This document shows positions 30,006 through 55,445 of a stretch of DNA of 64,000 nucleotides, piece by piece. This DNA is from Sulfurovaceae bacterium (GTDB lineage: Bacteria; Campylobacterota; Campylobacteria; Campylobacterales; Sulfurovaceae), in NCBI GenBank assembly GCA_965140575.1, contig OZ223261.1, forward strand, positions 391,243-455,242. Direction: 5' to 3'. The notes under the pieces were generated by a model. That model saw only the letters and a list, made by a program, of their open reading frames with translations, did not search any database and had not been told where the DNA came from. Numbering within the stretch: position 1 is the first letter of the stretch; each line of letters starts with the position of its first letter. A program made the position numbers and the translations under genes.

Positions 30006-30015
30006 TCCCTCTCCC

Positions 30016-31917
30016 TTAACCTATCGCCGATGAAATCAAAGCTGCAATAAGCAATGCAACTGCACCAAAAATCATCCAAGCTAAATAGTTTGATAGATTA
30101 CCGCTTTGCATCTTTCTCGATCCATCACCGCTTTTATAGACCACATTAGCTATCGCATCAACAGTTGCATCGACGATTTTCATATCGATGCTTCTCCAAA
30201 ATATACTAGAAAGTTCAGCATATGGTTTTGATATCATCTCTGCATACAATTGCGGTATATAATATTGATTTGCCAAGAGTCTATAGATGAAGCTATTTTC
30301 AGTTTTTTCGCTTCTTTTTAGTCCTCTAATATATTTAAACGCAGCCAACAGTATCCCGCCGACAGCAAATGCCAATACTATAGCTCCAAGTATGCTTGCT
30401 AGATGATGTGTATGTTCGCTCATCTCATACTCCGGCAATAGATTTGTGATAAAGCCCTCAAACCAATCTTTTCCAAACCCTGCAATGGCAGCTAAAATTG
30501 CAAGTGGACTTAGTCCGATTAGGACATATGTATACATCTCATGTGGATGGATGCCAAATTCTTTATAGCGCTCATCGCCATGGAAAGTTAAGAAGACCTG
30601 TCTAAAGCTATAAAATGCGGTCATTCCTGCAGTAATCACAAGCATCGCCCAAAGAATCAGACTTCCTTCATTAAATGCACTCTCTATGATCGCATCTTTT
30701 GAGAAGTAGCCTGCAAATGGTGGGATACCGGCAAGCGCTAAGGATGCTAGACCCATATAACCCCAAGTCCATCGCATCTTTTTACGCAATCCTCCCATCT
30801 TAAAGATATCAAGCTCATCATGCATAGCATGCATCACGTTTCCTGCACCCAAGAAGAGAAGCGCTTTGAAAAATGCGTGTGCCGCAAGATGAAAAAGTGC
30901 TATCCAATACGCACCAAGTCCGGCTGCTGCAAACATATATCCAAGTTGAGAAAGAGTTGAAAATGCAATGATTCTTTTCAAATCTCTATTGACAAGTGCC
31001 ATGGACGCCGCAAAGAATGCAACAAATGTTCCAAGTGAAGCGATGAAATAACTTACTCCGGCAACCTCTTCCATCCCAAAAAGTGGATTGGCACGAATGA
31101 CCAAAAAGACTCCGGCAGTAACCATAGTCGCAGCATGAATAAGAGCGGAGACAGGTGTCGGCCCTTCCATCGCATCAGTCAACCAAGTATGGAGAGGAAA
31201 TTGTGCCGATTTACCCATAGCACCGATAAAGAGTGCAATCGCTGCAGTAATCAATACTGCCGGTGAGAGTTCAGCGAGTTTTGGGAATACCTCATCATAT
31301 TGGAGTGAACCTGTATTCCAAAATATGATAAATATACCCACAAGCATACCAAGGTCAGCGATACGATTCATAATAAATGCTTCATTTGCTGCCCAAGAAG
31401 GAGAGATAGATGGGTTGATATCTCTTGTGACATCTTTTTTGTGATACCAGAAACCTATAAGCAACCATGAGCAGACACCAACACCTTCCCAGCCGATGAA
31501 AAGACCTGCAAAATTATCACTCATAACAAGTACCATCATCGAAAAGACAAATGCTGAGAGATAAGAGAAAAATCTGTTAAAACTTCTATCATGGTCCATA
31601 TAACCGATAGAGTAGATGTGCACAACCGTAGAGACCAAAGAGACGACAACCATCATCGTTACACTCACATGATCTGCCACAAAACCAAAAGGGATGGAGA
31701 GATCGCCAACAACAATCCAATCCATCATAGTCACATGGATTACCTCGTTAGTCATTGCGATATGGTATGCCAATGTTGCTGATGCCAAAAATGATATAAA
31801 TAGAAGCAACGATGCAACGATACCAACGAATGTCTGCTTCGGCACCATAACAAACATCAATGCAAAAAGAGAACTGACAAAGGGAGCAAAAAGTGCGATA
31901 TATACTAAAATTTCCAT
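30016..31917 (-). CDS. nuoL: NADH-quinone oxidoreductase subunit L
   Basis: 633 aa antiporter-like subunit with long C-terminal extension. Confidence 0.92.
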   Translation of the reverse strand: MEILVYIALFAPFVSSLFALMFVMVPKQTFVGIVASLLLFISFLASATLAYHIAMTNEVIHVTMMDWIVVGDLSIPFGFVADHVSVTMMVVVSLVSTVVHIYSIGYMDHDRSFNRFFSYLSAFVFSMMVLVMSDNFAGLFIGWEGVGVCSWLLIGFWYHKKDVTRDINPSISPSWAANEAFIMNRIADLGMLVGIFIIFWNTGSLQYDEVFPKLAELSPAVLITAAIALFIGAMGKSAQFPLHTWLTDAMEGPTPVSALIHAATMVTAGVFLVIRANPLFGMEEVAGVSYFIASLGTFVAFFAASMALVNRDLKRIIAFSTLSQLGYMFAAAGLGAYWIALFHLAAHAFFKALLFLGAGNVMHAMHDELDIFKMGGLRKKMRWTWGYMGLASLALAGIPPFAGYFSKDAIIESAFNEGSLILWAMLVITAGMTAFYSFRQVFLTFHGDERYKEFGIHPHEMYTYVLIGLSPLAILAAIAGFGKDWFEGFITNLLPEYEMSEHTHHLASILGAIVLAFAVGGILLAAFKYIRGLKRSEKTENSFIYRLLANQYYIPQLYAEMISKPYAELSSIFWRSIDMKIVDATVDAIANVVYKSGDGSRKMQSGNLSNYLAWMIFGAVALLIAALISSAIG

Positions 31918-31919
31918 CT

Positions 31920-32222
31920 TTACCCCTTCATCGTAGCGAGATCATCAAGATCAAGCGTACCATTCTTTTTATAGATGAGAATCAAAAGCCCAAGTCCCAC
32001 GGCAACCTCACTCGCAGCTATAGCAATCACGAAAAATGCAAACATTTGACCTGAGAGATCATTGTAAAAATGACCTGCAGCCGCTAAGGCTATATTGGCG
32101 GCATTGAGCATAATCTCCGTTGAGAAAAAGAGCATCAATAGATTCTTTCTTCTTACAACACCCATCAAACCTATCGCAAAAAGCAAACCGGATATTATCA
32201 AGTAGTGATTTAGTCCTATCAT
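31920..32222 (-). CDS. nuoK: NADH-quinone oxidoreductase subunit K
   Basis: 100 aa, 3 TM helices, in operon position. Confidence 0.9.
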   Translation of the reverse strand: MIGLNHYLIISGLLFAIGLMGVVRRKNLLMLFFSTEIMLNAANIALAAAGHFYNDLSGQMFAFFVIAIAASEVAVGLGLLILIYKKNGTLDLDDLATMKG

Positions 32223-32806
32223 TATTTTTCCCCATCCTTTTCATCTAAGATCATCTCTTCTTCTTCTGATATAGCTATATCCTCTTCGATATCCGTCAAA
32301 GATATATCCATCTTTTTACCTGCTAGTATAATCCCTGCTATCATCGCAACAAGCAACATAAGTGCCGCCACCTCGAAAGGGATGAGATATTTTGTAAAAA
32401 GTATCAACCCGACTGACTGAGGATTTGTTGCACCCTCTAGCGGTGGGTATGATGCTTCTATATTGGTTCCCAAAATAGGGGCTATAAATATCAAAGTTAA
32501 GAGGAGTGCCACGGATCCGCCAAGTAAAACTACCAAAGTAGTGGATGCATTTTTCTCTTTGACATCTTTGGTTGCATCAAAGAACATCATCCCAAATGCA
32601 TAGAGTGCCATCACGGCACCGACATACACGACTAACTGAACCGCACCCAAAAAATCTGCACCAAGCAGAAAGAAAAAGCCGGATATCATAACCATCCCTG
32701 CTGCGAGCGCACTCATAGCATAGAGCACATTTTTGCTAAATGCCGTAATGAGAAACAAAACAATCGTTGCCACAGAGAAAAAATAAAATGCAATTTGTTC
32801 AAACAT
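32222..32806 (-). CDS. nuoJ: NADH-quinone oxidoreductase subunit J
   Basis: 194 aa, 5 TM helices, acidic tail, in operon position. Confidence 0.88.
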   Translation of the reverse strand: MFEQIAFYFFSVATIVLFLITAFSKNVLYAMSALAAGMVMISGFFFLLGADFLGAVQLVVYVGAVMALYAFGMMFFDATKDVKEKNASTTLVVLLGGSVALLLTLIFIAPILGTNIEASYPPLEGATNPQSVGLILFTKYLIPFEVAALMLLVAMIAGIILAGKKMDISLTDIEEDIAISEEEEMILDEKDGEK

Positions 32807-32820
32807 ATCAGCTCCTCCTA

Positions 32821-33417
32821 TTAATACGCTAAAGGCGTTTTTTTGATATTTTTATCCGCCCATGGTGTTGGAGCACCGTAACCTGCGAACTCCTCTTGCT
32901 CTTTAAGTCTATCTATTGGTGTTAACATATCCTCAAAGAGTGAAAAGCTTGCTCTTTGCTCGCTCGCGGTCTCATATCTCGCACCGTGAACGATAGCAAG
33001 TTCAGGACAAACCTCAGCACAATACCCACAAAAGATACATCGACCAAAGTTGATAGTATATTCACTCACCTCTTTTCTTTGGTTTTCATCATATCGTGTC
33101 TCCATGGCAATGCAATTTGAGATACATATCTTCTCACAAAGACCGCAACCGATACATCTATAATGCCCGCTCTCAAGCAATCGCAACATATCATGTATGG
33201 CTCGATATCTAGGTGGAATCGGCATCTTCTCAAAAGGATATTTTGTCGTATGACTTTTGCCCATAAAAAGAGTTTTGAACATCTCTCTGATGGTTACCCA
33301 AAGGCCGATAAAGAGCTCTATCCTAAAAGTTCTTTTTACTACTCTTTTAAATCTACACCAAGGTGTCAAAGGAGTGCCTCCAAGGTCTAACATTATATAT
33401 TTTTGTTTTTCATTCAT
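32821..33417 (-). CDS. nuoI: NADH-quinone oxidoreductase subunit I
   Basis: Two 4Fe-4S motifs, CIGCGLCEKIC and CIFCGYCAEVCP. Confidence 0.93.
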   Translation of the reverse strand: MNEKQKYIMLDLGGTPLTPWCRFKRVVKRTFRIELFIGLWVTIREMFKTLFMGKSHTTKYPFEKMPIPPRYRAIHDMLRLLESGHYRCIGCGLCEKICISNCIAMETRYDENQRKEVSEYTINFGRCIFCGYCAEVCPELAIVHGARYETASEQRASFSLFEDMLTPIDRLKEQEEFAGYGAPTPWADKNIKKTPLAY

Positions 33418-33433
33418 CTCTACAACTCCCCCT

Positions 33434-34456
33434 TTATATCATGACCACGATACCTGTAATCATAACATTGATTACAGCTATAGGCATTAACACTTTCCAA
33501 CAAAACCACATCAATTGATCAGGTCTTACATGTGGCCAAGAGGCTCTCACCCACAGCATCAAAAAGAAAAAGAATGATATCTTCAATATAATCGCAATCC
33601 ATCCCGGAATAAACCCTAAAGGTGCATATCCGCCGACGAATATCAACGAAGCCATGATAGAAATCGTAATCATATTTGCATATTCACCGATAAAGAACAT
33701 CCCCCATCGCATACCACTATACTCTGTAGCATACCCTGAGACGATCTCAGCTTCATGCTCCAAAAGGTCAAACGGTGTTCTATTGGTCTCTGCAAAACCG
33801 GCTATCAAGAAGAGTACAAACGCAACCGGTTGTTGCCAAAGAATCCATGAGCCGACACCACCGGTTTGTGCATTGTTAAAATCTAAAAGTGAAAGGGAGC
33901 CGACAAGCATGATAGGGGCAAGCAGAGAGAGTCCCGTGATAACTTCGTAACTCAAAAATTGTACTGCCGTTCTCGCTGAACCTAAAATCCCCCATTTATT
34001 TGCCTGTGCCATACCGGCCAAGAGTGGACCATAGAGTCCGGATCCCATCACGCCAAGCATAAAGAGTATCCCGATATTGATATCCGCGATAGTCGAAGGG
34101 ACAGTCGCTGAGATTCCATTGATTAGAGGAAACCAATCAGGAACTGTAAAGGAGAATGTCGGGAATAGTGGGACGGCCGAGATTGCAACAAATGCTGTAG
34201 CTGCTGTTACTGCAGGCGCTATCATAAATATGATTTTATTTGCATTTTGCGGGATGATATCCTCTTTTGTCAAGAGCTTGATCCCATCAGCAACGATTTG
34301 AAGCAACCCCAAAGGTCCAACATGTGCAGGCCCTATACGGCGTTGCATATATGCCAATACTTTTCGCTCCAAATATGTACCAAATCCGGCTAAAGCCGAA
34401 ACGATCGCAAGAACCAAAACTATCTTTATTATTGTTCCTAGAATTAATGGATCCAT
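33434..34456 (-). CDS. nuoH: NADH-quinone oxidoreductase subunit H
   Basis: 340 aa polytopic protein. RRIGPAHVGPLGLLQ and AETNRTPFDLLEHEAE motifs. Confidence 0.93.
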   Translation of the reverse strand: MDPLILGTIIKIVLVLAIVSALAGFGTYLERKVLAYMQRRIGPAHVGPLGLLQIVADGIKLLTKEDIIPQNANKIIFMIAPAVTAATAFVAISAVPLFPTFSFTVPDWFPLINGISATVPSTIADINIGILFMLGVMGSGLYGPLLAGMAQANKWGILGSARTAVQFLSYEVITGLSLLAPIMLVGSLSLLDFNNAQTGGVGSWILWQQPVAFVLFLIAGFAETNRTPFDLLEHEAEIVSGYATEYSGMRWGMFFIGEYANMITISIMASLIFVGGYAPLGFIPGWIAIILKISFFFFLMLWVRASWPHVRPDQLMWFCWKVLMPIAVINVMITGIVVMI

Positions 34457-34457
34457 C

Positions 34458-36920
34458 TTATACCTCGCTTATCTTAACTTGTTTAAATCTGCCCGCATTA
34501 AAAAGTGGATAGATCTCTTTTGAACTTAAAAAGTCAGGAACTTTGACCACATCGCCGCTCATTTTAGCATCAATCTCAACAGGAAGTTCGAGAGATACAT
34601 CATCTATCTCCACTTTTACTTTTTTACCCAAAGTTTGGGCTTTCGCTTCACTCACATACAGAGCAAACGGCTCAAAGATTTGATGCGCTTTGTTTGTAAA
34701 GTCATTAAACTGTCTTTGCGGATTGCATCTATAAGCGATCTCACCCTCTAGCTTACAACTCTCATCAGGTTTTTCAACCTCAAACGCTTTTGCTTTTGTT
34801 GATTTTTGTTTGAGCATATAGCCTCTAAGTTCTTCGCCTGCATTTGTAAAGCCATTTGGCAATGCATCAAAAGAGAGTGCTTCAAAGCCTTTTCTTGTTG
34901 GCAATTTACTTGTCCAATCAATACTCAACTGCTCTCCGAGCCCTAAAGCACTCATGATATCATTGAGCTCATAACCGTTGTATGAAAGTGCCGCGTTTGT
35001 AGGGACAACTCTTTTGTGCATATTTGTAAATGTTCCCTCTTGTTGGTTAAGTGCAGGCATATCCAAATCACCATCACCCAGTGCGCTCAATCTAAAGTCA
35101 CCTACTTCGTTGTACCCTATCGTGTATCCATCTGCTTTTTCATCAAGATCGCAGATAAGTGCAACACCCAAAGAGTTTGTTTTTGGCGGGATAAGTGCTA
35201 TCTTGATAGTTGTATATTGTTCGATAAATGCCAAAAGTTTTGCAAGATTTTCCGCTCTTGGATGCGCATAGAAATCTTCGCCGACAACCATAGAGAAATT
35301 ATCTGCTTTTGCTACCATCTTCTCAAAGATGTCATCAAACCCTTCAGGAGCACCCAAGAGTGATGCCAACTCATTTGCAACATACTCTACCTCTTTTTCA
35401 ACTACTTTTGGTTTTTTCTTTGTTACCTCTTTACTCTCACCTGTCTCTTCATCGACAACGGTTTCCGTCACATCTTCCATGATCGTCTCTTGGACTGTTT
35501 TTGTTGCTTTTTTATGGAAACTCTCGAGATAGTTTTTGGTCTCTTTAGGAAGTTCATCTTTTGATGCAAAAAGATCAAGTACAAGATAGAGTGCATACTC
35601 TTCTAGTCCCGGTGTATGATAGATAGGCGTAACATTTTTACCGAGTGATTCTATAAGCGTATCACCTACCGGATGAAAATAGAGTCCTGCTCCTTTATTG
35701 AGCTTTTGGATGTTATTAAAGATATATCTTACATTTGGATTATCATGTCTAAGCGCGCTACCTACACTGATGATAAAATTACTCTCGCTCATCATCTCTT
35801 TATAGTTACCGCTATATAAGCTCTCGCCTCTATAGTTCTCAAAATCTTTTAAGAAGCTTTGGAATGCTTTGGCTTCGGGATTGATAAGTTTCACTCCGAG
35901 CTCTTTTTTGAGACTTTGAAGCATTGCTGCCTCTTCATTTGTGATAGTCGAGTTAAAACGAATCGCTTTTGCCTCTTTAAATGCTTTGATCGCTTTTGCA
36001 AACTGTTTTTCATCTTTTATTGCGCCGCTATTTTCAAAATCATATCCGAAGCGTCCCGCACCACACAGCGATACATAGTTCCACTCGTTGGTTACTCTAT
36101 ATATCTTATCACTTCTGTCGCTAATTGAGGTTGGTTTTGTCTCATAAAATATCTGGCAACCACTGCTACAATGGGAACAAGTCGCAGGAACGCGTTTAAG
36201 CTCCCATGCATTTGATGTATAGACAAAATCTCTACTTACAAGTGCGCCAACCGGACAAACAGAAAGACACTCACCACAATCGCTACAGTTTGTTTGTCCA
36301 CTCTCATCGCTTGGGACGATAAGCGATTTTTGCAATTTATTCCACATAGCATATGCATCTTTTGGCATGCTCTCTTTAAGCTCTTTATCAAGCTCAGCTC
36401 CATCTCTTGGCCCTGTTGAGAGCGCATTGTCTCCAACCATATCTTTACAGATTGTTACACATCGTTCACATACGATACAAAGACCCGGATCATAATGCAA
36501 TACGCTACTAAAATTTGTGCTCTCTCTTTTGCAATCAGCAATCGTATAATTTTGTGAATCAACGCCAAGTTCAAGGGTATAGTTTTGGAGTTCACACTCT
36601 CCACTTTGATCACAGACGCCACATTGGAGAGGATGGTTTATATCATACACCCCCATAATCGCTCTTCTCTCTTCAAGGATCTCTTCACTGCTTGTTGTAA
36701 CATCCATGCCATCTTTCGCTTTTGCATTACAAGCATAGACTCTTTTGCCGTCAGCCTCTACTAAACATATACGACAAGCAAGTGTAGGAGAGCATCTACT
36801 GATATAGCAAATAGCAGGAATAAATATGCCATTTGCTCTAGCGATATTGAGTATATACTCACCCTCTTTAGCTACACATTCAACGCCGTCAATCTTGATC
36901 TTCACTTCATTTAGATTCAT
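34458..36920 (-). CDS. nuoG: NADH-quinone oxidoreductase subunit G (820 aa, promoter-distal of two tandem NuoG-like genes)
   Basis: N-terminal 2Fe-2S (CYISRCSPTLACRICLV...AC), HPLQCGVCDQSGEC, CIVCERC and CSDCGECLSVCP clusters. Molybdopterin-fold-like C-terminal part. Confidence 0.85.
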   Translation of the reverse strand: MNLNEVKIKIDGVECVAKEGEYILNIARANGIFIPAICYISRCSPTLACRICLVEADGKRVYACNAKAKDGMDVTTSSEEILEERRAIMGVYDINHPLQCGVCDQSGECELQNYTLELGVDSQNYTIADCKRESTNFSSVLHYDPGLCIVCERCVTICKDMVGDNALSTGPRDGAELDKELKESMPKDAYAMWNKLQKSLIVPSDESGQTNCSDCGECLSVCPVGALVSRDFVYTSNAWELKRVPATCSHCSSGCQIFYETKPTSISDRSDKIYRVTNEWNYVSLCGAGRFGYDFENSGAIKDEKQFAKAIKAFKEAKAIRFNSTITNEEAAMLQSLKKELGVKLINPEAKAFQSFLKDFENYRGESLYSGNYKEMMSESNFIISVGSALRHDNPNVRYIFNNIQKLNKGAGLYFHPVGDTLIESLGKNVTPIYHTPGLEEYALYLVLDLFASKDELPKETKNYLESFHKKATKTVQETIMEDVTETVVDEETGESKEVTKKKPKVVEKEVEYVANELASLLGAPEGFDDIFEKMVAKADNFSMVVGEDFYAHPRAENLAKLLAFIEQYTTIKIALIPPKTNSLGVALICDLDEKADGYTIGYNEVGDFRLSALGDGDLDMPALNQQEGTFTNMHKRVVPTNAALSYNGYELNDIMSALGLGEQLSIDWTSKLPTRKGFEALSFDALPNGFTNAGEELRGYMLKQKSTKAKAFEVEKPDESCKLEGEIAYRCNPQRQFNDFTNKAHQIFEPFALYVSEAKAQTLGKKVKVEIDDVSLELPVEIDAKMSGDVVKVPDFLSSKEIYPLFNAGRFKQVKISEV

Positions 36921-39193
36921 TTAATTACCCCGTCCTCTTGTAATTTCATCAAAGTATATCTATAATTTTTTAAACCTGATGCTTCGAGTGGCTCTGCGAC
37001 ACTTGCGGTTATCGCAATGGTTCCTTTCATCGATGCATCAAGTTTAAAAATTCTCACATACTGCCTCGTATCGTTTTCAAAAAAAAGCTCCTCTCCGTCA
37101 CTTATTTTCATAGCCGCTGCAAATTGTTGAGAGCCTTTGAGATATCTGCTTTGGCTGTATTTATGGAGTGTGTTCTGTGTAAAATGCAAGCCCTCATTAC
37201 ACCAGTAGACAACGCCGCCATCATAAGTCGGCAAATCTTCAATCTCTTCAAACTCTTCGGTGCTCTTTACATTTTTGATATCAAGCAGATAGCCTCGATT
37301 ATCTTCAAAGCTTGAGAGTTCTTGAGTAAGCGCATCAAACTCTACTGCTTTATAGCCGCCTTTTTTAGGAAGCTCTTTTGTATAATCAATCGTATATTCC
37401 GCTTCCAATCCTAAAGCATTGGCGATATCGTTGAGCGTATAGCCACCAAATGGGAGTGCAACATGCGTTGCAACCACGCGTTTATCGATAGTAGTAAGTG
37501 TTCCCTCTTGTTGATTGAGTGCCGGCATATCAAGATCAACTTCACCTTGTGAGCCCAAAGTAAAACCGCCTTTTACGTTGTAGCCTATGCTCTGCTCCTC
37601 GGTGTCTTCATCATCAAGATCACATATCAAAGAGACACCAAGCGCATTTGTCGCAGGTGGGACGAGTATGACATTAAATTCGCCGTATTTCTCAAAAAGT
37701 GCGAGCAGTTTTGCTATCTCCATAGCTCTTGGATGTCCATAAAGATCAGCCCCTACAATGAGTGAGCGTCTGCTTTTTTTCTCAAAAGAAGCTGCCAACT
37801 TCTCAAGCTCCTCTTCTCCCACATTACTCTCAGCACTCAAGTTACCTACATCGAGAGAATCTAAAAACTCTTTGACCTCATCGGAGAGCTCGATATTACT
37901 CAAAAGTGCATCCACCAAAAGTGCTGCAACACCCTCTTCGCTTCCTACTTCATATTTGATAAATTGTGTTATGATTTTTGCCATACTCGCATCTTCTATG
38001 GGGTGCAAATAAGCTACTCTGGCTCTATGCCATTTGCTTGCCATAGATATATGGTATTTGACCATTGGATTATCATCATTGATTCGTGTACCGAAAACTA
38101 TGATTGCGTCTGAATCTTTGATCGCTGTAAGATCACCATTGTAGAGACTTTTTCCGCTCACTGAGCTATATGCACTAAGAAATTTTTGATAGCTTCTCGC
38201 CTCATCACAGATGAGCTTATAGCCATACTTCTCTTTAAGCTTTTGGAAGATGAGTGCCTCTTCATTAGTGATATTTGCGCTCAAGCGTATGCTCTTAGCC
38301 GCCCTAAATGCCTCTATAGCACCCTCGAAAGCTACGGTATCTTTGCTAACACCTTGGTTTGCAAAATCATAAGCAAATCTCCCTGCCCCGCAAAGTGAGT
38401 TAAACTCAAATGGATTTGTTACTCTATAGATACTCTTCTCTCTGTTTGCAATGCTTGAAGGCTTGGACTCATAATAGAGGGCACATCCGCTACTACAGTG
38501 TGCACATGTTGCCGGAATTCGCTCAAGCTCCCATGCATTAGAGCTGTATTTAAACTCACTATTTGTGAGTGCACCTACAGGACAAACCGCCATACACTCA
38601 CCGCAGTTACTACAATCACTATCTAAATCTGTATTGATAATTCTTGAGTTGTACCCGCCAACCGCTACTTGGAGTATGCTCTCGCCAACGATTTCATTAC
38701 AAACTCGCACACATCTTTCACAAACGATACAAAGAGAAGGGTCATAGCTGATAAAACCCCAATTTTCGATCTTTTTATCTGACTCTTTTGCACTAAAATT
38801 TTGCGCTGCTACATCAAACTCCAGTGTCTTATTTTGCAGGTCACACTCACCGCTTTTATCACATACGCCACACTCCAAAGGATGATTGACACTAAAAAGC
38901 TTCATGATATTTTGTCTATGCTTATAGAGCATTTCACTCGTGATGATGACATTCACGCCATCAACTGCTCGCTCTTGGCAAGCAAGCACTGTTCCCTCTA
39001 CCCCTTCTATCTGCACGACACACATTCGACATGATGCTATCGGTTTCACCTTAGATATATAACACATCGTAGGGATATAGATATCATTAGCTCTAGCGAT
39101 TTCGAGTATAGTATCGCCTTTTTTGCCAATGCAACTCTTTCCGTCGATAGTTATAGTGATATTTTGATTCATCTCTTGCTTCTGTGCCATCAT
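36917..39193 (-). CDS. second NuoG-like Fe-S subunit (758 aa paralog)
   Basis: Same cluster motifs (CYISKVKPIASCRMCVV, HPLECGVCDKSGEC, CIVCERC, CSNCGECMAVCP). ATG 39193 overlaps the upstream stop (TAATG). Colinear similarity to the 820-aa protein. Confidence 0.85.
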   Translation of the reverse strand: MMAQKQEMNQNITITIDGKSCIGKKGDTILEIARANDIYIPTMCYISKVKPIASCRMCVVQIEGVEGTVLACQERAVDGVNVIITSEMLYKHRQNIMKLFSVNHPLECGVCDKSGECDLQNKTLEFDVAAQNFSAKESDKKIENWGFISYDPSLCIVCERCVRVCNEIVGESILQVAVGGYNSRIINTDLDSDCSNCGECMAVCPVGALTNSEFKYSSNAWELERIPATCAHCSSGCALYYESKPSSIANREKSIYRVTNPFEFNSLCGAGRFAYDFANQGVSKDTVAFEGAIEAFRAAKSIRLSANITNEEALIFQKLKEKYGYKLICDEARSYQKFLSAYSSVSGKSLYNGDLTAIKDSDAIIVFGTRINDDNPMVKYHISMASKWHRARVAYLHPIEDASMAKIITQFIKYEVGSEEGVAALLVDALLSNIELSDEVKEFLDSLDVGNLSAESNVGEEELEKLAASFEKKSRRSLIVGADLYGHPRAMEIAKLLALFEKYGEFNVILVPPATNALGVSLICDLDDEDTEEQSIGYNVKGGFTLGSQGEVDLDMPALNQQEGTLTTIDKRVVATHVALPFGGYTLNDIANALGLEAEYTIDYTKELPKKGGYKAVEFDALTQELSSFEDNRGYLLDIKNVKSTEEFEEIEDLPTYDGGVVYWCNEGLHFTQNTLHKYSQSRYLKGSQQFAAAMKISDGEELFFENDTRQYVRIFKLDASMKGTIAITASVAEPLEASGLKNYRYTLMKLQEDGVIK

Positions 39194-41205
39194 TATACGA
39201 CCACCATCGAGATATAATAACATCGCATACATCTTTGTGCTTCAGCAAGTGCTTCTTCTCCGCTCAAACCGAGATTAACCTCTTTGTTGTTATCGATTCT
39301 GTCACCAACTGAGAGTTTTGGGCTCTCTTCTCTTGGTTGTCCTTGCATCCAACCCGTAATCTTCTCGTTCTTATCATAGACATTGAGTGTTCTAAGATGA
39401 TCTTCCATGATCTCATCATCGCTCAAACTCACTTTGCCATCATAGATATATCTTGATATCACCGAAGCGGCTCTTTTGGCTTGTCCTACAGCATTCACGA
39501 TTGTCATAGGGCCATATTCACAATCACCTGCAGCAAAAAGTCCTATGCGTGATGTCATATAATCTTTCCCATTAGTCAAAAGTGTTCCCCATGAGGTCAG
39601 CGCAACATCCCACTCTTGTGGGAGGAGTACCAAATCAGCTGATTGAGAAACGGCAGGAATGAGATAATCACACTCTATCTCAAAATCTCCATCTTCTATC
39701 TTGATAAGTTGTGCTCTACCACCATCAGGGTCAGGAACAAGCTCAAATCTGTTAATAAGTAATTTTTTAAGCTTATTATCTTCATCAAATATTCGCTCAA
39801 CTGCTGAGTGGAAGATAAACTCTACTCCCTCTTCTACCGCCTCATGATACTCTTCGTAAGTTGTATTTCTTATAATCGTTTTCTCATCTCTTCTATAGAG
39901 CATGATGACTTTTTTTGCGCCCTCTCTCACAGCACAGCGCACGACATCCATCGAAGTAAACCCGCCGCCCACACAGACAACAACCTTATCTTTAAGGTCT
40001 TCACTTGCAGGCGAACCTATGCGGTATTTGTGCCATAGATTTACCTTGTCAAGCATCGATATGGCGCCCCAATACCCCTCCATATCCAATCGCTCATTCT
40101 CTGCTCTTACTTTTTTAGAAAGCCGTGTCCCAAATGCTAAAAGCGTTGCATCATACTCACTCTCTAGCTCTTTAAGTTTTGTGGCATCTACTTTCGTATT
40201 TGTATAAACACTTACTGCCTCCATAGAGGTGACGAGCTCGATATCTTTATTGTATCTATCGATTGGCATACGATACTCAGGCACTCCAACAGCAACCTCA
40301 CCGCCTAAAACAGGCAACTCTTCAAAGATATCAACCTTTATCCCCTCAAGTGCAAGATAATATGCCGCTGTGAGTCCTGCCGGACCTGCACCTATGATTG
40401 CAACTTTTTTGCCATCATCTCTTAACGGTTGTGGTTCTTTTGGGTGTTGCCACGGTAAAGAGTGATCTGTCTCAAAATCAGCCCCGATGCGTTTCAGCTC
40501 CATGATCGAAATCGGCTCATCGAGGTTTGCTCTTCTGCAAGCATCTTCGCAAGGATGCGGGCATACTCTCCCGCAAGTATGTGCCAAAGGCATTGTTTGT
40601 CTCGTTGATTGCAAGGATTTATCAAATTGCATATCTCGTACACCCTCGATATAGGCAGGGATATCAACATGCGCCGGACACATATCCATGCAAGGTGCGG
40701 TTACTTTGGCTATATAACTTACATCTTCGTTTGCATAATCTTTTGAAGGTATCTGTTTCTCTATAAGGAGGTCAAACTCTTCTCTATAGTGCTCAAGTAG
40801 ATCCAAGATAGGCTTCGGTGTTGTTCTTCCTATCTCACACTTTGATGTCATCATCATCGTTTCGCTCACCTCTTTGAGATGCTCGATATCTGCTTGCGCT
40901 CCTTCGCCTCTGGCTATCTTATCGAGAAGATCATACAGTATCCGTCCACCCCATCTACCGGGTGCACATCTTCCGCAAGCTTCAGAGTATTTTTGATATT
41001 GGGCAGCATACTCACATGCGAGTCTTACAACATCAACATTCTCATCAAATACGGCAACACCATCCCAACCTATAAAGGCTTTTGAACTTTTATCAGCACT
41101 ATAATCCCCGGGCAATTTGAAAGATGAAACTTGACAAGTATCGCCACTAATGTGTCGATTGTCAACAAGCTCATCCCTCCATGTCGAGAAAATAGTTTTA
41201 GACAT
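39193..41205 (-). CDS. fusion flavoprotein: NuoF-C-terminal-like domain + GltD-type (glutamate synthase small-subunit-like) NAD(P)H oxidoreductase, in place of NuoF
   Basis: N-terminal part SEACGRCAPGRWGG...SKCEIG resembles the NuoF 4Fe-4S (N3) domain. CMDMCPAHVDIPAYI and CGRVCPHPCEDAC are GltD Fe-S motifs. VAIIGAGPAGLTAAYYLA and VVVCVGGGFTSMD are dinucleotide folds. Confidence 0.75.
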   Translation of the reverse strand: MSKTIFSTWRDELVDNRHISGDTCQVSSFKLPGDYSADKSSKAFIGWDGVAVFDENVDVVRLACEYAAQYQKYSEACGRCAPGRWGGRILYDLLDKIARGEGAQADIEHLKEVSETMMMTSKCEIGRTTPKPILDLLEHYREEFDLLIEKQIPSKDYANEDVSYIAKVTAPCMDMCPAHVDIPAYIEGVRDMQFDKSLQSTRQTMPLAHTCGRVCPHPCEDACRRANLDEPISIMELKRIGADFETDHSLPWQHPKEPQPLRDDGKKVAIIGAGPAGLTAAYYLALEGIKVDIFEELPVLGGEVAVGVPEYRMPIDRYNKDIELVTSMEAVSVYTNTKVDATKLKELESEYDATLLAFGTRLSKKVRAENERLDMEGYWGAISMLDKVNLWHKYRIGSPASEDLKDKVVVCVGGGFTSMDVVRCAVREGAKKVIMLYRRDEKTIIRNTTYEEYHEAVEEGVEFIFHSAVERIFDEDNKLKKLLINRFELVPDPDGGRAQLIKIEDGDFEIECDYLIPAVSQSADLVLLPQEWDVALTSWGTLLTNGKDYMTSRIGLFAAGDCEYGPMTIVNAVGQAKRAASVISRYIYDGKVSLSDDEIMEDHLRTLNVYDKNEKITGWMQGQPREESPKLSVGDRIDNNKEVNLGLSGEEALAEAQRCMRCYYISMVVV

Positions 41206-41438
41206 TAATGAGCCTTTTTCCTAACTACTATCGTCCAATCGACTTCATTGAACTTGAGTGAGTTGAGAAGCTCATGCTTGTGCTTCTTGATGATATCTGC
41301 ACTCTTTTGGATAGGAGAAAAATCACCAATCTCAAAGAGAAATATACCTACCTCGCCACCTTGTAAATCACTATCGATTAGCTCTATCATGCGTTTGTAA
41401 AAATCGCCGTGTAAATCTCTCAAATCATATCTTTTCAT
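41205..41438 (-). CDS. small complex-I-associated protein occupying the NuoE position (Cj1575c/HP1264-like by position and size)
   Basis: 77 aa, translationally coupled on both sides (4-nt overlap with nuoD, 1-nt with the next gene). No 2Fe-2S motif. Confidence 0.65.
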
Positions 41439-42661
41439 CTGTCAACCTCACCAAAAACGATATTGGTACTTCCTATGATAGTAACAACATCAGCTAGATA
41501 GCTTCCCACTAACATCTTTTGCAAAAGCCCTGTATGGAAAAAGCTTGGTGCTCTACATTTGAGTCTGTATGCATATGGTTCGCCTTCGGATTTTATGTAA
41601 AATCCAAGTTCTCCCTTTGGAGACTCTGTCGGAACATAGACTTCACCTTTTGGCGGTCGCATCCCTTGAGTTACCAAAACAAAATGTTGCATGAGTGCAT
41701 AATTTTGTGTCATGATCTCCTCTTTTGGGGCAGAGATATATTTTGGCGCATGTGCCATAAGTTGCGGTTCACTCTCTTCGTGCATCGGGATAAGTTGATG
41801 GAGTATCTTCACGGATTGCTTCATCTCTTCTATATAGAGCCTATATCTTCCATAGCTATCACATCGATCACTCACAGGTATGTCAAAATCAAGCTCACCA
41901 TAAAGCTCATAAGGCTCCTCTTTTCTGATATCATATTTGACACCTGAACCTCTGAGCATAGGACCCGTACAACCCCAAGAAAGTGCATCTTCAGCAGAGA
42001 TGACGCCGACATTTTCAAGTCGCATTTTCCAGATTCTATTTTCAGTCAAGAGATCTTCATAAAGCTTGATATTTTCAGGCATATTGTTCAGAAATTTCTC
42101 AAGATCTTCTAGCCAACCCGCAGGCAAATCGAGAGGCACACCGCCTATACGCACTGCTGCATGTGTCAATCTCGCTCCACAATAAGACTCCATAAGGTCC
42201 ATCGCATATTCTCTCTCTCTAAATGCATACAAGAAAACACTCATAGCGCCAACATCGAGTGCATGTGTTGCGAGGAAAAAGAGATGGGACATGATACGGT
42301 TAAGCTCAAGAAGCATCGTTCTGATAACCTGTGCGCGTCTTGGAGCCTCTATCCCTAAAAGTCTCTCAACACTAAGGGCATAGGCATAGTTGTTTGATGT
42401 CGAGGCGATATAATCGAGTCTATCCGTTGTCGGTAGAAATTCATTATAGGTCATATTTTCCGCCATCTTTTCGACACCTCTGTGCAGGTAGCCAATATCA
42501 GGAAGAGCTTTGACAACCTGTTCGCCATCTAACTCAAGTACAAGTCTCAACTGCCCATGAGCAGAAGGGTGTTGTGGCCCAAAGTTGATGACCATGGTAT
42601 TGTCTGCACGCTCAAAATTTAAGTTTTCAAAAAACGGTGTTAATTTGGTAGTAACTTGCAT
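41435..42661 (-). CDS. nuoD: NADH-quinone oxidoreductase subunit D
   Basis: 408 aa. [17 protein letters not shown] and C-terminal FGEVDR motifs. Confidence 0.94.
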
Positions 42662-42669
42662 AATTGATC

Positions 42670-43452
42670 CTATCTCTTCTTTTTAAGCTGTTTAGACTTT
42701 TTCTGATAATTTACGAAAGCTGTCTTGCTGTATTCGATCTCGTTTGGCTCTTCACCTTCACTTATATCAGCACCAAACGGCACTTCATAACCGACTCTTG
42801 AGAATCTTTGCGTATCATATCTATCAACCTTGGCAGGATCTCTATTTTCAGGCCCGATAACATCTCTATTTTCTTTGCCGAATATCTTATCAACCTCATA
42901 CCATGAAGCAGCCTCATCACCTTGAAGCGGATAAGTTTTTAAAAGCGGGTGACCACTCCAATCATCCGGCATGATGATGCGCTTAAGATAAGGATGATTA
43001 TTAACATAGATGCCAAACATATCAAACATCTCTCGCTCGGCAAAATTTGCCATTTTGAAAAGTGGTACGATGGATTCTATAGATTCATTTTGCTTGATGC
43101 GGCATACAACTCTTGCTCTTTTTGCAAGATCAAGATTGAGCATCTGATAAAAGATCTCAAACTCTCCACTTTGTGCCAGATAGTCAACAGCACTCAATTC
43201 ACTACACATCGCATAGCCACACTTGTCTCTGAGTAACTCTAGCACTGCCAAATTATCCTTTGGCTTGATGTGCAATACAAGCTGTCCAAGTTCTATATAA
43301 CTCTCGCTGATATATTTTTTAAGCGTCTTGACAACATCGGCAAAGTGACCGTCTTCGCCGGCATCTTCTCGTGGAACCCTAGGAGCAACCCAAAATCTAT
43401 CAGTATAGTAAGACTTCTTTTGGCGGCTATCTTTTGGTGTATACTTTCTCAT
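42670..43452 (-). CDS. nuoC: NADH-quinone oxidoreductase subunit C
   Basis: 260 aa. [10 protein letters not shown]...HP 30-kDa subunit signature. Confidence 0.9.
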
Positions 43453-43964
43453 TATATGAACCTTTGTTTTACATTTTTATTCATATTTGCAGATTCTCTT
43501 CTGATCTTCTTTTGAAGCATCATAAGTGCATATTGGAGCGTCTCCGGTCTTGGGGCACATCCCGGAAGATAGATATCGACAGGGACGATTCTATCCACAC
43601 CTTGCACAGTCGCATAGGTGTTGAACATCCCGCCGGTATTTGCACAACTTCCCATACTGATAACCCATTTCGGCTCAGTCATCTGGTCATACAGTCTTCT
43701 TGTAAACTCCGCATGTTTTTTTGAAAGTGTTCCTGAGAGTATCATAACATCAGATTGTCTCGGGCTTGCTCTAAAAATTGTCCCGAATCTATCGAAGTCA
43801 AATCGAGCTGCCCCACTTGCCATCATCTCGATAGCGCAACATGCTAGTCCATATGTTAAAGGCCAAAGCGAATTTGATCTTCCCCAATTTACAAGCTTGT
43901 CAACGCTTGTCAACGCTACAGGTAATCCTGCGCTTGATGTGTAGTTTACTTTATGTTGTGCCAT
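43452..43964 (-). CDS. nuoB: NADH-quinone oxidoreductase subunit B
   Basis: [19 protein letters not shown] and [10 protein letters not shown]2-cluster ligand motifs. Confidence 0.94.
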
Positions 43965-44362
43965 TCAAGAGCTCCTTTCTTCCACGCATAGATAAAGCCG
44001 AGTGCGAGTAAAAATACAAAAAGCATCATCTCGATAAGCCCAAACCAGCCTAACCCTAACGCTTTAAAGAGTTTAAAGTCAATTCCCCATGGAATCATAA
44101 AGATGATTTCCACATCAAAAAGGATAAAAAGAAGTGCTATAAGATAAAACTGCACCGATATACTGTTCGGCTGCTTAGTAACTTCAGGTCCGCACTCATA
44201 GATACTAAGCTTCAACTTCTCTCTATCAAGCTTTGCTAATTTTCGACTGATAAACCTTGTGAGAACCAAGGTTGCAGGAAAAGCAACAGCTGCTACGATA
44301 AAAAATACGAACACCCCAAAGTATGGATGTTCAGAGACAATATGCGATAATCCACCGGTCAT
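43946..44362 (-). CDS. nuoA: NADH-quinone oxidoreductase subunit A
   Basis: 138 aa, 3 TM helices. YECGP motif. First gene of the operon. Confidence 0.9.
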
Positions 44363-44721: not shown

Positions 44722-46110
44722 TTAATATTTATAACTTACGGAAAATCTGAGATCTTGTGCTGTGATATCGGTCTCTTGCACAGGAACCCAACCGGCACAA
44801 TTTACATTTGGCGTATAGTCATGTTGCATATAGGTATATCGAACCTGTGCAGGAAGGTATTCTTCACCAAAGAGATAAAAGTTCCAATAGGCCTCATATG
44901 CATCACCACGCACAGCAATCTTGGATCCGATAGCTGAATCTTCAGCCCATGTCATCGGTGTCCAATATTTTGATCCATGATTATATTCAATCCCTATCTT
45001 TCCTTTTTCTGTGATCATATCAGGGAAGATAACCCCTGCCCAGATAGAGCTTCCGCTTCTTGTACCACCATCGCTTGAGCCTAAAAGTTGGTACCCGTTG
45101 TCTGCATCATAGTAACTATATGCTGCAGATATAAACGCTGTTGTATTTGCCCAAAAACCATCAATCTCATTTCCAATTCCATCAATTTTGAATCCAAGCG
45201 AGAGAAGATCAGCTGTTCCTGCACCTACTTTTTTCTCAGTTGTCGCGATATTTTCACCTTTTGTGTCGAAGATATGTGCCCACTCATACATGACTCGATA
45301 TTGACCATTATTATAAGCATCACCAAGTGTCACAAAAAAGTCAACATTGTCATCTTCAGATCCATCTACCTTAGCATTTGGACCCCAAGGTGTCGTATAG
45401 CCGATGCTGTAAACACCTGTTGTAGCACCCGTATGTGCACGACCTCCTACAAATTTTGTATACGCGCCCGGAATAAATCTACTCCAATCTAGTTTAACCA
45501 TGAGAGCATTGACTTCCATATTGGTGATATGTGCTAGAGGTGATCCCTCTTCAGGATTGTTCTCTCTATAGTTTGCCAAGAAACCGTCTGTTGAAGGGCG
45601 ACGACCGATAGAGACACTGATAGGCTGTGCTCCAAGGGCTGTTGAGTAGACAAAGTATGCCTCTTTAACTCTCATCACCGTATCGGTTGCTTTAGAGCTT
45701 GCCGACCAATCTTTAAGCCCTCCATCCTCACCAAAAAGGTGCGCGCCCCAAAGTGAATAGATAGCAAGCTTTCCTTTAAAAATTAACTTATCCGTAGGCG
45801 CAGCTGCCATTGTGAGGTACAATCTACTCGCAAGTAATGATGAATTTTCTGCACTCTCGCCTGTTATATTGTTTTTATAATCCAAAACATCAACGGAGTT
45901 TCTAAAATCTACTCCAAACTTGATATTGTCAAACGAATCATGTTTTTTGACCTCAATAATCGTTTTTTTATTGCTTTTGATCTTTTTTTGATTGCCGTAA
46001 ACCATCTCTTCTAGAACTCTGATTCTCTCTTCGAGCTCAGCATTAGTCGCAGCATTTGTTGCTGAAATTACTGATGCTACCATGAGGGACATTACTACAA
46101 ATCTTTTCAT
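44722..46110 (-). CDS. outer-membrane beta-barrel protein with N-terminal coiled-coil (tentatively DUF3373-like putative porin)
   Basis: Signal peptide MKRFVVMSLMVASVISATNA. ELEERIRVLEEMV heptad region. Aromatic-rich alternating strands. Ends RFSVSYKY. Confidence 0.75.
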   Translation of the reverse strand: MKRFVVMSLMVASVISATNAATNAELEERIRVLEEMVYGNQKKIKSNKKTIIEVKKHDSFDNIKFGVDFRNSVDVLDYKNNITGESAENSSLLASRLYLTMAAAPTDKLIFKGKLAIYSLWGAHLFGEDGGLKDWSASSKATDTVMRVKEAYFVYSTALGAQPISVSIGRRPSTDGFLANYRENNPEEGSPLAHITNMEVNALMVKLDWSRFIPGAYTKFVGGRAHTGATTGVYSIGYTTPWGPNAKVDGSEDDNVDFFVTLGDAYNNGQYRVMYEWAHIFDTKGENIATTEKKVGAGTADLLSLGFKIDGIGNEIDGFWANTTAFISAAYSYYDADNGYQLLGSSDGGTRSGSSIWAGVIFPDMITEKGKIGIEYNHGSKYWTPMTWAEDSAIGSKIAVRGDAYEAYWNFYLFGEEYLPAQVRYTYMQHDYTPNVNCAGWVPVQETDITAQDLRFSVSYKY

Positions 46111-46242
46111 TACTACTCTCCTAAAAAAACGAAAGTATAACCAATGAAAACTTAAATATATTAACTTTAATTTATAATTATGTTAATACATTATTATAAA
46201 TATTATGCGAGATATAGCAACAAAATAAGGCTGTTTAACGCA

Positions 46243-46680
46243 TTATTGATTTGTAATGTGCATATATTTTGAGATAAATTCTTCCGGAATCTTTTGCGGG
46301 CGGTATGTCTCTATCTCCACAAAAACCCAATTGGTCCACCCCTCACATATAATCTTGCCCTTTTTAACATTGAGAAGTTCGTATTGACGGATTGACTGCG
46401 CTTTTTTGACACTCTGCACCCAAGTATTTAAGAGAAGTTCATCGCCTAGTAAAGCACTCTGTTTATAGGCTATATTGTGCTCTCTTGCAACCCATGTGCG
46501 ATTAAATTTTTTCAGTGCATCAAATCCCAAGCCCAAAAAGTCGGAGTGCGCTACAGCGATATCGATAAACCATTCGAGATATCGGATATTACCAACATGG
46601 CCATTGACATCAATATCCTCTTTTTGAACGATAATCTTTTTTGTAAATTTTTCTCTATTTCCCGATGCATCATTATTCAC
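46243..46680 (-). CDS. hotdog-fold acyl-CoA thioesterase (4HBT/YbgC-like)
   Basis: 145 aa. DIDVNGHVGNIRYLEWF pattern typical of 4HBT thioesterases. Confidence 0.8.
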   Translation of the reverse strand: MNNDASGNREKFTKKIIVQKEDIDVNGHVGNIRYLEWFIDIAVAHSDFLGLGFDALKKFNRTWVAREHNIAYKQSALLGDELLLNTWVQSVKKAQSIRQYELLNVKKGKIICEGWTNWVFVEIETYRPQKIPEEFISKYMHITNQ

Positions 46681-48722: not shown

Positions 48723-49259
48723 ATGCGATACCAAAGTGTGATAGCAGGTTTCGGCGGTCAAGGTGTTGTCTTTTTAGTGAAAGTCTTGGCCATCTGTGCC
48801 GGCAATAGAAACATCCCTTTTTTGGGCACGGAAAATCACGGCATGAGCCAAAGGGGAGGCGCCGTATCGTGCCATATCAAAATCGGTGATTTTTCAAGCC
48901 CGCTCATAGACACCAATCAAGCCGATCTTTTGATAGGTCTAGAAGCGCAAGAGAGTCTTAGAAATATCTCTTTTTTACACAAAAACGGCAAAGTAGTCAC
49001 AAATGCCGATACAAACTTTCCGCAACTCCCTTTTGTCACTGCAAAAGCTGATGGGTTTGCGCTTGCCAAGCAAAGAGAGTTCCCTATCCAAGCACTCAAT
49101 GTATTTATGCTTGGTGTGGTTTTAGGAAGTATCGAAGATTTTCCTTTCTCACAAGAGGAAGTGCGCACTGCTATCGAGCAGATGAATGCCAAAATGGCAC
49201 AACAAAATTTCAAAGTATTGGAGATGGGCATTGAAGCAGGAAACAGAAGCAAAAATTAG
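48723..49259 (+). CDS. iorB: indolepyruvate:ferredoxin oxidoreductase beta subunit
   Basis: 178 aa. GFGGQGVV...E.HGMSQRGG gamma-domain motif. Starts 1 nt after the iorA stop. Confidence 0.85.
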   Translation: MRYQSVIAGFGGQGVVFLVKVLAICAGNRNIPFLGTENHGMSQRGGAVSCHIKIGDFSSPLIDTNQADLLIGLEAQESLRNISFLHKNGKVVTNADTNFPQLPFVTAKADGFALAKQREFPIQALNVFMLGVVLGSIEDFPFSQEEVRTAIEQMNAKMAQQNFKVLEMGIEAGNRSKN

Positions 49260-49647: not shown

Positions 49648-49660
49648 TCAAAGGATTTCG

Positions 49661-52052: not shown

Positions 52053-52080
52053 AAATAATCTACTATAAGTCTCTCTTGAT

Positions 52081-55080: not shown

Positions 55081-55092
55081 CACTTCAAATGT

Positions 55093-55411: not shown

Positions 55412-55445
55412 TTATATTTCCTTGCTTTATATATCAGGTCTAAGC

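Follow-up and report, generated by a model that had tools for sequence, protein, structure and literature searches.

A complex I operon from a Sulfurovaceae bacterium with an SfrB/StnC-like flavoprotein at the NuoF position and two NuoG paralogues

The subject of this study is the complex I (nuo) operon in a 64,000-nt stretch of DNA from a Sulfurovaceae bacterium (contig OZ223261.1 of assembly GCA_965140575.1, hereafter the window), in which NuoE and NuoF are replaced by a 77-aa protein and a 670-aa iron-sulfur flavoprotein, followed by two NuoGs. McNichol and Sievert described exactly this operon in Sulfurimonas denitrificans, with a "NuoF substitute" (Suden_1824) and two NuoGs (Suden_1823 and Suden_1822), the two NuoG genes being reported to have similar expression. 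They found that Sulfurimonas and Sulfurovum share the composition of the operon and proposed that electrons flow in reverse, to NAD(P)H and ferredoxin (bioRxiv 10.1101/717884). That preprint credits Weerakoon and Olson (2008) with having noticed the layout. According to the summary in a later article, the C. jejuni (Campylobacter jejuni) complex I carries NuoX and NuoY and has flavodoxin as its donor (Weerakoon and Olson 2008, as cited in PMC6682613). Reviews name the corresponding pair of Helicobacter pylori nuoXY and still treat all Campylobacterota complexes as NuoXY-type.

Relatives of the 670-aa protein have been described in other enzymes. SfrAB of Geobacter sulfurreducens is an NADPH:Fe3+ oxidoreductase that was purified as a soluble enzyme, and the SfrB family name also covers the beta subunit of the NADP-dependent formate dehydrogenase of Moorella thermoacetica (sfrB2); in both enzymes the SfrB-family NADPH subunit pairs with a NuoG/FdhA-like alpha subunit. 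Recombinant StnC, from the StnABC complex, binds flavin adenine dinucleotide (FAD) and oxidises NADPH. In NfnABC, electrons pass from NADPH to FAD, cluster A7, cluster A6 and the NuoG-type clusters, and this path is a mid-potential entry rather than the bifurcating site (PMC11829005).

The locus in the window shows no essential difference from that of S. denitrificans. The two share the gene order, a pair of NuoGs of which one is short and one long, the YRR motif and the cluster cysteines, and the flavoproteins of Sulfurimonas loci are 65-69% identical to the 670-aa protein. The window thus holds another member of this group, from Sulfurovaceae, and judged by its sequence the operon is of the Sulfurimonas/Sulfurovum/Wolinella subtype of epsilon complex I. 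With the C. jejuni and H. pylori complexes it shares the absence of NuoE and NuoF, a homologous NuoX 3´ of nuoD, and a NuoG (G2) orthologous to their single NuoG; it differs from them in having a second NuoG and in that the NuoY position (HP1265, 328 aa) is held by an unrelated 670-aa flavoprotein. With the canonical N-module it shares the NuoF C-terminal helical domain and NuoG clusters N1b, N4, N5 and N7, but it lacks NuoE, the flavin mononucleotide (FMN)/NADH Rossmann domain and the third Cys of N3, has FAD/NADPH for FMN/NADH, and carries two NuoGs, each with one extra [4Fe-4S] site. Both the architecture and the main hypothesis are already known from the 2019 S. denitrificans preprint, and the layout can be seen in genomes published more than 10 years ago. 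What may be new are the placing of the flavoprotein in the SfrB/StnC lineage, a Cys3-Lys ligand set for the cluster adjoining the FAD, a three-Cys N3-like site in Campylobacterota, the occurrence of the layout outside autotrophs, and a parallel replacement of NuoE/F in Thermodesulfobacteriota nuo operons. On balance, and with moderate confidence, we favour a reading in which the 670-aa protein serves complex I as its NADP(H) input/output subunit, in a reversible enzyme that would run mainly in reverse.

The operon occupies 17.4 kb of the minus strand (26986-44362) and is tightly packed according to the open reading frame (ORF) calls. Its order is nuoA-B-C-D, the 77-aa gene, the 670-aa gene, a 758-aa NuoG (G1), an 820-aa NuoG (G2) and nuoH-I-J-K-L-M-N, as listed here:

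43946-44362 (-), nuoA, start of the operon (ORF call)
43452-43964 (-), nuoB (ORF call)
42670-43452 (-), nuoC (ORF call), with Complex1_30kDa / Complex1_49kDa Pfam matches in the nuoC-nuoD set
41435-42661 (-), nuoD (ORF call); nuoA-D make up the operon start and the quinone module
41205-41438 (-), NuoX, 77 aa, small substitute at the NuoE position (PF16514)
39193-41205 (-), SfrB/StnC-like iron-sulfur flavoprotein, 670 aa, at the NuoF position
36917-39193 (-), nuoG1, 758 aa, shorter NuoG paralogue that accompanies the 670-aa gene
34458-36920 (-), nuoG2, 820 aa, orthologue of the single NuoG of Helicobacter pylori
26986-34456 (-), nuoH, I, J, K, L, M and N, the NuoI Fe-S subunit and the membrane arm (ORF calls)

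A first-pass annotation, made from the letters of the window and its ORFs, had read this region as one operon with overlapping start and stop codons and without NuoE or the NuoF FMN/NADH domain, and both observations held. The overlaps are 4 nt for nuoD and the 77-aa gene, 1 nt for the 77-aa and 670-aa genes, 1 nt for the 670-aa gene and G1, and 4 nt for G1 and G2, and the widest intergenic gap across the entire operon is 16 nt. Neither NuoE (the 2Fe-2S thioredoxin-like subunit) nor the NuoF flavin domain was found by Pfam and NCBIfam searches among the scanned ORFs of at least 110 aa in the 64-kb window. The order of nuoA-D and nuoH-N matches that of related loci (for nuoA-D, across L001-L057). 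Chance can be excluded as the source of the layout because the genes are long and strongly conserved, with hundreds of orthologues at ~80% identity. The start of G1 is uncertain, with possible lengths of 751-771 aa: the maximal ORF, from 39232, encodes 771 aa, while the ATG at 39193 gives the 758-aa protein and a TAATG overlap with the upstream stop codon. In a promoter scan, promoter-like matches occurred at chance level, and terminator-like matches numbered 21 against a shuffle mean of 11.8 (~2x); neither set placed the operon boundaries. RNA-derived contigs from close relatives, 95-99% identical, partly cover nuoH, G2, G1, the 670-aa gene, NuoX, nuoD, nuoC and nuoA. These contigs, from two runs of which one is a metatranscriptome and the other is uncertain in type ("RNA?"), are short, and we regard them as supportive but fragmentary. 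The DNA runs that contain this sequence are two runs of one named organism along with salt-marsh and marine-sediment metagenomes, and a tblastn search of a plasmid collection with the 77-aa and 670-aa proteins returned nothing useful.

The 77-aa protein was identified as the Helicobacter/Campylobacter NuoX, in agreement with the first-pass view that the operon has a small substitute of this type. It belongs to PF16514 (NADH-UOR_E, E 1.3e-38) and matches PDB 2LXR_A (E 4e-26), a 76-residue entry deposited as "NADH dehydrogenase I subunit E" whose sequence is 99% identical to Helicobacter pylori proteins. It contains no cysteine and is therefore not a NuoE-like Fe-S protein. In H. pylori, nuoD is followed by the NuoX gene, a 328-aa protein without a Pfam match, and a single NuoG.

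For the 670-aa protein, the domain calls of the first-pass annotation (a GltD/NuoF-C fusion flavoprotein with Fe-S sites of its own) were borne out by the profile searches it had proposed. Pfam places NADH_4Fe-4S at aa 74-145 (2e-20), Fer4_20 at 169-247 (3e-23) and Pyr_redox_2 at 266-576 (1e-25). No Complex1_51K (NuoF FMN/NADH) domain was found with Pfam or NCBIfam, and NuoF models match only aa 33-152. Ligands were followed in two alignments, the first with 16 homologues as distant as 30% identity and the second with homologues from another 79 loci. The predicted sites are:

40741-41118 (-), aa 30-155, NuoF/HoxF/HydB C-terminal helical domain with a predicted N3-like cluster site
40465-40701 (-), aa 169-247, two predicted [4Fe-4S] sites
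39478-40410 (-), aa 266-576, FAD domain (G272-x-G274-x-x-G277) and NADPH domain (G413-G-G415, Y437-R438-R439)
39217-39243 (-), aa 655-663 (EAQRCMRCY), C-terminal CxxC predicted to complete the distal GltD-type cluster

In profile searches, residues ~30-155 match the cluster-N3 C-terminal domain of HoxF, HydB and NuoF (1e-29 to 1e-17). The N3-like ligands C77, C80 and C123 are invariant, and the third Cys of the CxxCxxC motif is Gly83. The motif (CGRCAPG, aa 77-83, window 40957-40977) has this Gly in 57/57 Campylobacterota sequences (CGRCxPG), with no compensating Cys nearby. The corresponding motif is CCxKCxPG, with an extra Cys, in SfrB-like Desulfuromonadales proteins and the canonical CGxCxPC in the nuo operons of Thermodesulfobacteriota type described below. 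The cluster predicted to adjoin the FAD has C176, C215, C219 and K238 as ligands. In the alignment to 9bov_A these fall on Cys108, Cys147, Cys151 and Lys170, which are the published ligands of cluster A7, the electron acceptor from FAD (PMC11829005). A second predicted [4Fe-4S] cluster would be held by C172, C223 and the C-terminal C659 and C662. The C-terminal CxxC is circularly permuted in position relative to GltD and aligns with the tails of NfnA and StnC, and R658, C659, R661 and C662 are invariant in the aligned homologues.

The remainder of the protein points to the same relatives. Residues 170-663 align without large gaps to NfnA (9BOV), StnC (8OH5) and archaeal NfnA (9N5U), with E values of 1e-70 to 1e-75. 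An AlphaFold2 model of the whole protein (predicted local distance difference test 90.6, predicted template modelling score 0.90) gave 9bov_A (NfnA), 8oh5_C (StnC) and 9n5u_A (NfnA) as its best Foldseek matches in the PDB (1e-40 to 1e-42, 29-33% identity), ahead of NfnSL large subunits, Xfn, GltD and dihydropyrimidine dehydrogenase. The Cys3-Lys ligand spacing, the YRR motif and the C-terminal CxxC are identical to those of StnABC and NfnABC (8OH5, 9BOV, 9N5U). The arrangement differs, in that the module of those enzymes sits inside a NuoG-like subunit and a separate NuoF/NuoE pair with FMN bifurcates, while in the 670-aa protein the module is fused to the NuoF cluster-binding tail only, with no FMN site. 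With the SfrB family it shares the NuoF-C domain, the GltD-like module, the C-terminal CxxC and a NuoG/FdhA-like partner gene that follows. It differs from that family in that the SfrB enzymes are soluble with an intact molybdopterin domain in the alpha subunit, whereas the partner in the window is a complex I NuoG paralogue inside nuoA-N. The S. denitrificans preprint compared the flavoprotein with NfnB of NfnSL; the NfnL subunits 4ylf_B and 5jca_L match it more weakly than NfnA and StnC do, and it is here closer to the SfrB and StnC/NfnA modules. The 670-aa protein is accordingly predicted to join the C-terminal cluster domain of NuoF to an SfrB/StnC-type module, and the FAD and NADPH sites as well as the Cys3-Lys and second [4Fe-4S] sites of the SfrB/StnC-NfnA module were all recognised in it. 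The FAD glycines, the YRR motif and all cluster ligands are invariant in 80/80 homologues. The YRR motif is the NADP(H) 2'-phosphate site of Thermotoga maritima NfnB (bioRxiv 10.1101/717884). Because of this invariance, and because the nearest relatives among solved structures are the domains of NfnABC and StnABC that oxidise NADPH, the partner is probably NADP(H), as the first-pass annotation had suggested. An extended NuoY was rejected as an identity for the 670-aa protein, hhalign giving HP1265 (locus L081) a probability of 0.1% against the profile of the 670-aa family.

When one genome per species was scanned, at least 594 loci with a homologue of the 670-aa protein were found, of which the best 80 were mapped with the nuo proteins of the window. 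In databases, more than 7000 proteins fall below 1e-20, the first 120 at 79-99% identity; those with names among the 120 come from Sulfurovaceae, Sulfurovum, Nitratifractor and other Campylobacterota, and JGI labels several of the orthologues "formate dehydrogenase beta subunit". Across Campylobacterota, flavoprotein orthologues are 65-92% identical. Mapping in this phylum, also proposed in the first-pass annotation, showed the flavoprotein gene next to nuo genes in all 57 Campylobacterota loci among the best 80. Where the flank was long enough, the gene lies between NuoX and NuoG1, and G2 then follows except in L015 and L034. These loci span Sulfurovaceae, Sulfurimonas, Sulfuricurvum, metagenome-assembled genomes (MAGs) of Arcobacteraceae and "Helicobacteraceae", and two Helicobacter species. 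The layout is the same in Wolinella succinogenes, with a flavoprotein of 649 aa. At that locus (L082, 10445-12234) the second NuoG was called as two ORFs, one of 309 aa and a piece that runs off the locus, so that the gene may be frameshifted or split, or its record may contain a sequence error. The Helicobacter loci L055 and L057, unlike H. pylori, have the flavoprotein and two NuoGs, all in enlarged form: the flavoproteins measure 724 and 962 aa, and the NuoGs of L057 are 1046 and 1012 aa long. In L015 (14292-22010, a single MAG contig) the operon appears to stop after G1, with unrelated genes in place of G2 and nuoH-N. L034 (3425-5689, also a single MAG contig) has NuoX, the flavoprotein and one NuoG, which resembles G1 over its first 275 residues (71% versus 47%) and, slightly, G2 over its last 130; either the gene is a natural hybrid of G1 and G2, or the assembly has collapsed the two paralogues.

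Outside Campylobacterota, two further contexts were found. In Desulfuromonadales and Geobacteraceae, a homologue (36-42% identity over residues 1-670) forms a stand-alone pair with a ~830-aa NuoG/FdhA-like protein that has an intact molybdopterin domain, and no nuo genes lie alongside the pair. The Geobacteraceae loci are presumably orthologous to sfrB, the comparison having been made through these loci rather than with the G. sulfurreducens SfrB sequence itself. In four loci of Thermodesulfobacteriota type (L074, L078, L079 and L080, hereafter delta-type; labelled Syntrophobacterales, Thermodesulfobacteriota, "Deltaproteobacteria" MAG and uncultured bacterium), the homologue lies directly 3´ of nuoD, there is one NuoG each, and the N3 motif is the canonical CxxCxPC. 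The match lies at ~10001-11950 in L074, L078 and L080, within an otherwise ordinary nuoA-N operon, and at 847-2802 in L079, a short contig with nuoD, the homologue and NuoG only. NuoX, NuoE and NuoF were not found in any of the four, and the homologue after nuoD is the only candidate input subunit of nuoA-N in these operons, in line with a role as a complex I subunit. We found no description of an SfrB-like replacement in Thermodesulfobacteriota nuo operons in the literature searched. The tree of the flavoproteins has three clean clades (Campylobacterota, SfrB-like and delta-nuo) and no resolved root.

The duplication of NuoG reported in the first-pass annotation is genuine. Both large proteins have Fer2_4, NADH-G_4Fe-4S_3, Fer4 and Molybdop_Fe4S4 domains, and both match the Helicobacter/Campylobacter NuoG model PRK08493 (846 bits for G1; 1107 bits for G2, over the full length). 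In BLASTP they are 40% identical over their full length, with two gaps of ~40-65 residues in G1 opposite G2 aa ~164-205 and ~470-535; these regions match those reported for Suden_1822 of S. denitrificans (bioRxiv 10.1101/717884). Ligands for five predicted clusters (N1b, N5, N4, the extra [4Fe-4S] and N7) are all kept in both window proteins, though the N7 ligands are lost in three of the eight G2 orthologues sampled. The NuoG of H. pylori is closer to G2 (551 bits) than to G1 (323 bits). In a neighbour-joining tree without an outgroup, G1, G2 and H. pylori NuoG form one Campylobacterota clade, split with 100% bootstrap from the SfrA-like and delta-type NuoGs. The H. pylori NuoG is grouped with G2, and branches inside the clade have 36-69% support, too little to fix the sequence of events there. 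Because the Campylobacterota NuoGs form one clade, the extra NuoG is best seen as a paralogue that arose within the phylum rather than an imported SfrA. On the same split we reject the idea that G1 came with the flavoprotein as an SfrB-SfrA cassette from Desulfuromonadales.

These results bear on whether the 670-aa protein and G1 could instead be a soluble, SfrAB-like NADPH oxidoreductase (for example NADPH:ferredoxin), encoded among the nuo genes but unattached to complex I. The stand-alone pairs of Desulfuromonadales and Geobacteraceae and the purification of SfrAB as a soluble enzyme speak for this. We nevertheless consider it improbable, given that the position between nuoD/X and nuoG2/H is kept in at least four family-level groups, in Wolinella and in Helicobacter, that G1 is a Campylobacterota NuoG paralogue, that the G1 molybdopterin domain is degenerate (Pfam E 3.5e-4, below the cut-off, versus 7e-47 for the SfrA-like partner), and that the delta-type operons have the flavoprotein in place of NuoE/F and no further input subunit.

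Another arrangement would have two alternative assemblies share one membrane arm, G2 with NuoX serving flavodoxin/ferredoxin or G1 with the 670-aa protein serving NADP(H), so that the carriers are served independently. This would fit the orthology of G2 with the only NuoG of H. pylori, a species that possesses NuoX and lacks the flavoprotein, and the constant company of G1 and the flavoprotein. The two NuoGs, as full-length paralogues, could compete for one docking site, and in the delta-type operons the flavoprotein and one NuoG suffice. Strict co-transcription with overlapping stop and start codons suggests instead equal production for one assembly, and L034 combines NuoX and the flavoprotein with a single hybrid NuoG. 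We know of no precedent for alternative assemblies on a shared membrane arm, and we think this arrangement unlikely.

In the reading that we favour, with the 670-aa protein as the NADP(H) subunit of complex I, the flavoprotein would exchange a hydride between NADP(H) and FAD, and single electrons would pass from FAD to the Cys3-Lys [4Fe-4S] cluster, to the second [4Fe-4S] cluster and to the N3-like cluster in the NuoF C-terminal domain. By comparison with NuoF-NuoG and SfrB-SfrA, the docking site of this domain would be the N-terminal 2Fe-2S/4Fe-4S domain of one of the NuoGs, most likely G1. Electrons would then travel via NuoG, NuoI and NuoB to menaquinone, and this transfer would be coupled to the translocation of protons. 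A flavodoxin/ferredoxin site as in C. jejuni is probably retained in the NuoX/G2 part, and the enzyme would be a reversible NADP(H) (probably also flavodoxin/ferredoxin):menaquinone oxidoreductase. Since flavodoxin is the donor of the C. jejuni complex, a flavodoxin gene in the window is a candidate for the redox partner:

63193-63690 (-), flavodoxin gene, 165 aa (PF00258, 7e-23), outside the operon, ~19 kb from nuoA

In an organism where electrons from sulfur compounds or H2 enter at the quinone/cytochrome level, the enzyme would work mainly backwards, with the proton-motive force lifting menaquinol electrons to NADP+, and possibly to ferredoxin, for biosynthesis and CO2 fixation. Menaquinone has a potential of ~-75 mV and NADP+ of ~-320 mV, a difference of ~47 kJ per electron pair, and four protons at 150-180 mV yield roughly 60-70 kJ. 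On these potentials the reverse direction is plausible. We infer membership of the membrane complex, docking on G1, the NuoX-G2 flavodoxin/ferredoxin site and mainly reverse operation.

Several points weigh against this proposal. The absence of NuoE and NuoF covers the 64-kb window only, and a canonical nuoEF elsewhere in the genome is possible. The N3-like relay cluster may be unusual or absent, because its site has only three Cys in all Campylobacterota. The operating direction is deduced from lifestyle, and the window contains no reductive tricarboxylic acid (rTCA) cycle marker genes. No biochemical or structural work on this complex was found in the literature searched, nor a solved Campylobacterota complex I structure, the isolated 2LXR being the only PDB chain that matched NuoX by sequence.

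Lifestyle also bears on the direction. A forward respiratory NADPH dehydrogenase, oxidising catabolic NADPH and pumping protons rather than making reductant, would draw on the reversibility of complex I and on the presence of the layout in Wolinella succinogenes and Helicobacter species, which are not known to be autotrophs. With sulfur, H2 or formate oxidised outside its cytoplasm, a lithotroph would have little catabolic NADPH and need anabolic NADPH, as argued for S. denitrificans (bioRxiv 10.1101/717884), and we regard forward operation as very unlikely. The first-pass annotation had linked the module to rTCA-type autotrophy. The layout in Wolinella and two Helicobacter species weakens a role specific to that cycle; the common theme is less likely to be the rTCA cycle itself than growth on quinone-level donors, which makes anabolic NADPH necessary. 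Wolinella succinogenes is genetically tractable and, with the same module, is a practical test system.

How the two NuoGs are used affects what the enzyme delivers. Both could sit in one complex as a branched Fe-S wire, with NADP(H) exit via the flavoprotein on G1 and ferredoxin/flavodoxin exit via NuoX-G2, a possibility that we put forward tentatively and think doubtful. If true, one proton-pumping machine would supply both reductants for CO2 fixation, possibly with obligatory coupling, the three-Cys N3-like cluster would be a tuned junction, and the Thermodesulfobacteriota replacement would point to a broader class of NADPH-linked complex I that has gone unrecognised. McNichol and Sievert have published a model for S. 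denitrificans (bioRxiv 10.1101/717884) in which a coupled bifurcating/confurcating enzyme, driven by the proton-motive force, obligatorily splits four menaquinol electrons between NADP+ and ferredoxin along a two-NuoG branched wire. In keeping with it, the extra [4Fe-4S] and N7 sites kept in both NuoGs of the window could bridge two chains, GltD-like subunits are the bifurcating site in NfnSL, and both a flavodoxin gene and a ferredoxin-dependent oxidoreductase cluster lie within the window. The flavoprotein is nearest, however, to the StnC/NfnA module, including its Cys3-Lys cluster, where FAD is a simple mid-potential NADPH entry (PMC11829005), and the FMN/NuoF-NuoE-type bifurcating site of the StnC/NfnA enzymes is missing here. 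The operon has no NfnS-like partner (the FAD- and [2Fe-2S]-containing, ferredoxin-NADP-reductase-like NfnS/NfnA subunit of NfnSL), the delta-type operons make do with one NuoG and no NuoX, and the loss of N7 ligands in G2 orthologues noted above also speaks against a bridge. Obligatory bifurcation therefore seems rather unlikely to us. Of the bifurcating or reverse-running link suggested in the first-pass annotation, reverse flow is plausible on the potentials, while the StnC/NfnA-like module lends bifurcation no positive support.

Sulfur- and H2-oxidising Campylobacterota are the dominant dark carbon fixers of vents, sulfidic sediments and oxygen-minimum zones, and this operon is the leading candidate for raising quinone-level electrons to NADPH and ferredoxin. 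The comparison made here sharpens that model to an NADPH/FAD entry of the SfrB/StnC kind that would be wired into NuoG.

Other genes of the window were also annotated. Divergent from the nuo operon, at 46893-51378 (+), lies a ferredoxin-linked cluster that resembles indolepyruvate:ferredoxin oxidoreductase (Ior). Its products are a TPP/POR_N/Fer4 protein (609 aa), a POR gamma-type protein (178 aa), a thioesterase, a PaaK-like AMP ligase and an ACT protein. At 44722-46680 (-), separating this cluster from the nuo promoter region, are genes for a DUF3373 protein (462 aa, probably in the outer membrane) and an acyl-ACP-thioesterase-like protein. The stretch 52000-60300 has a GC content of 31-35% versus ~40%, with six consecutive minus-strand ORFs without a Pfam match (55446-59847) and a MerR-type regulator (59939-60280), and may be an acquired island. 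Finally, an ectABC-like ectoine cluster (GNAT acetyltransferase, class-III aminotransferase and ectoine synthase) is located at 60404-62572 (+), which fits the salt-marsh and marine-sediment runs that contain the window sequence.

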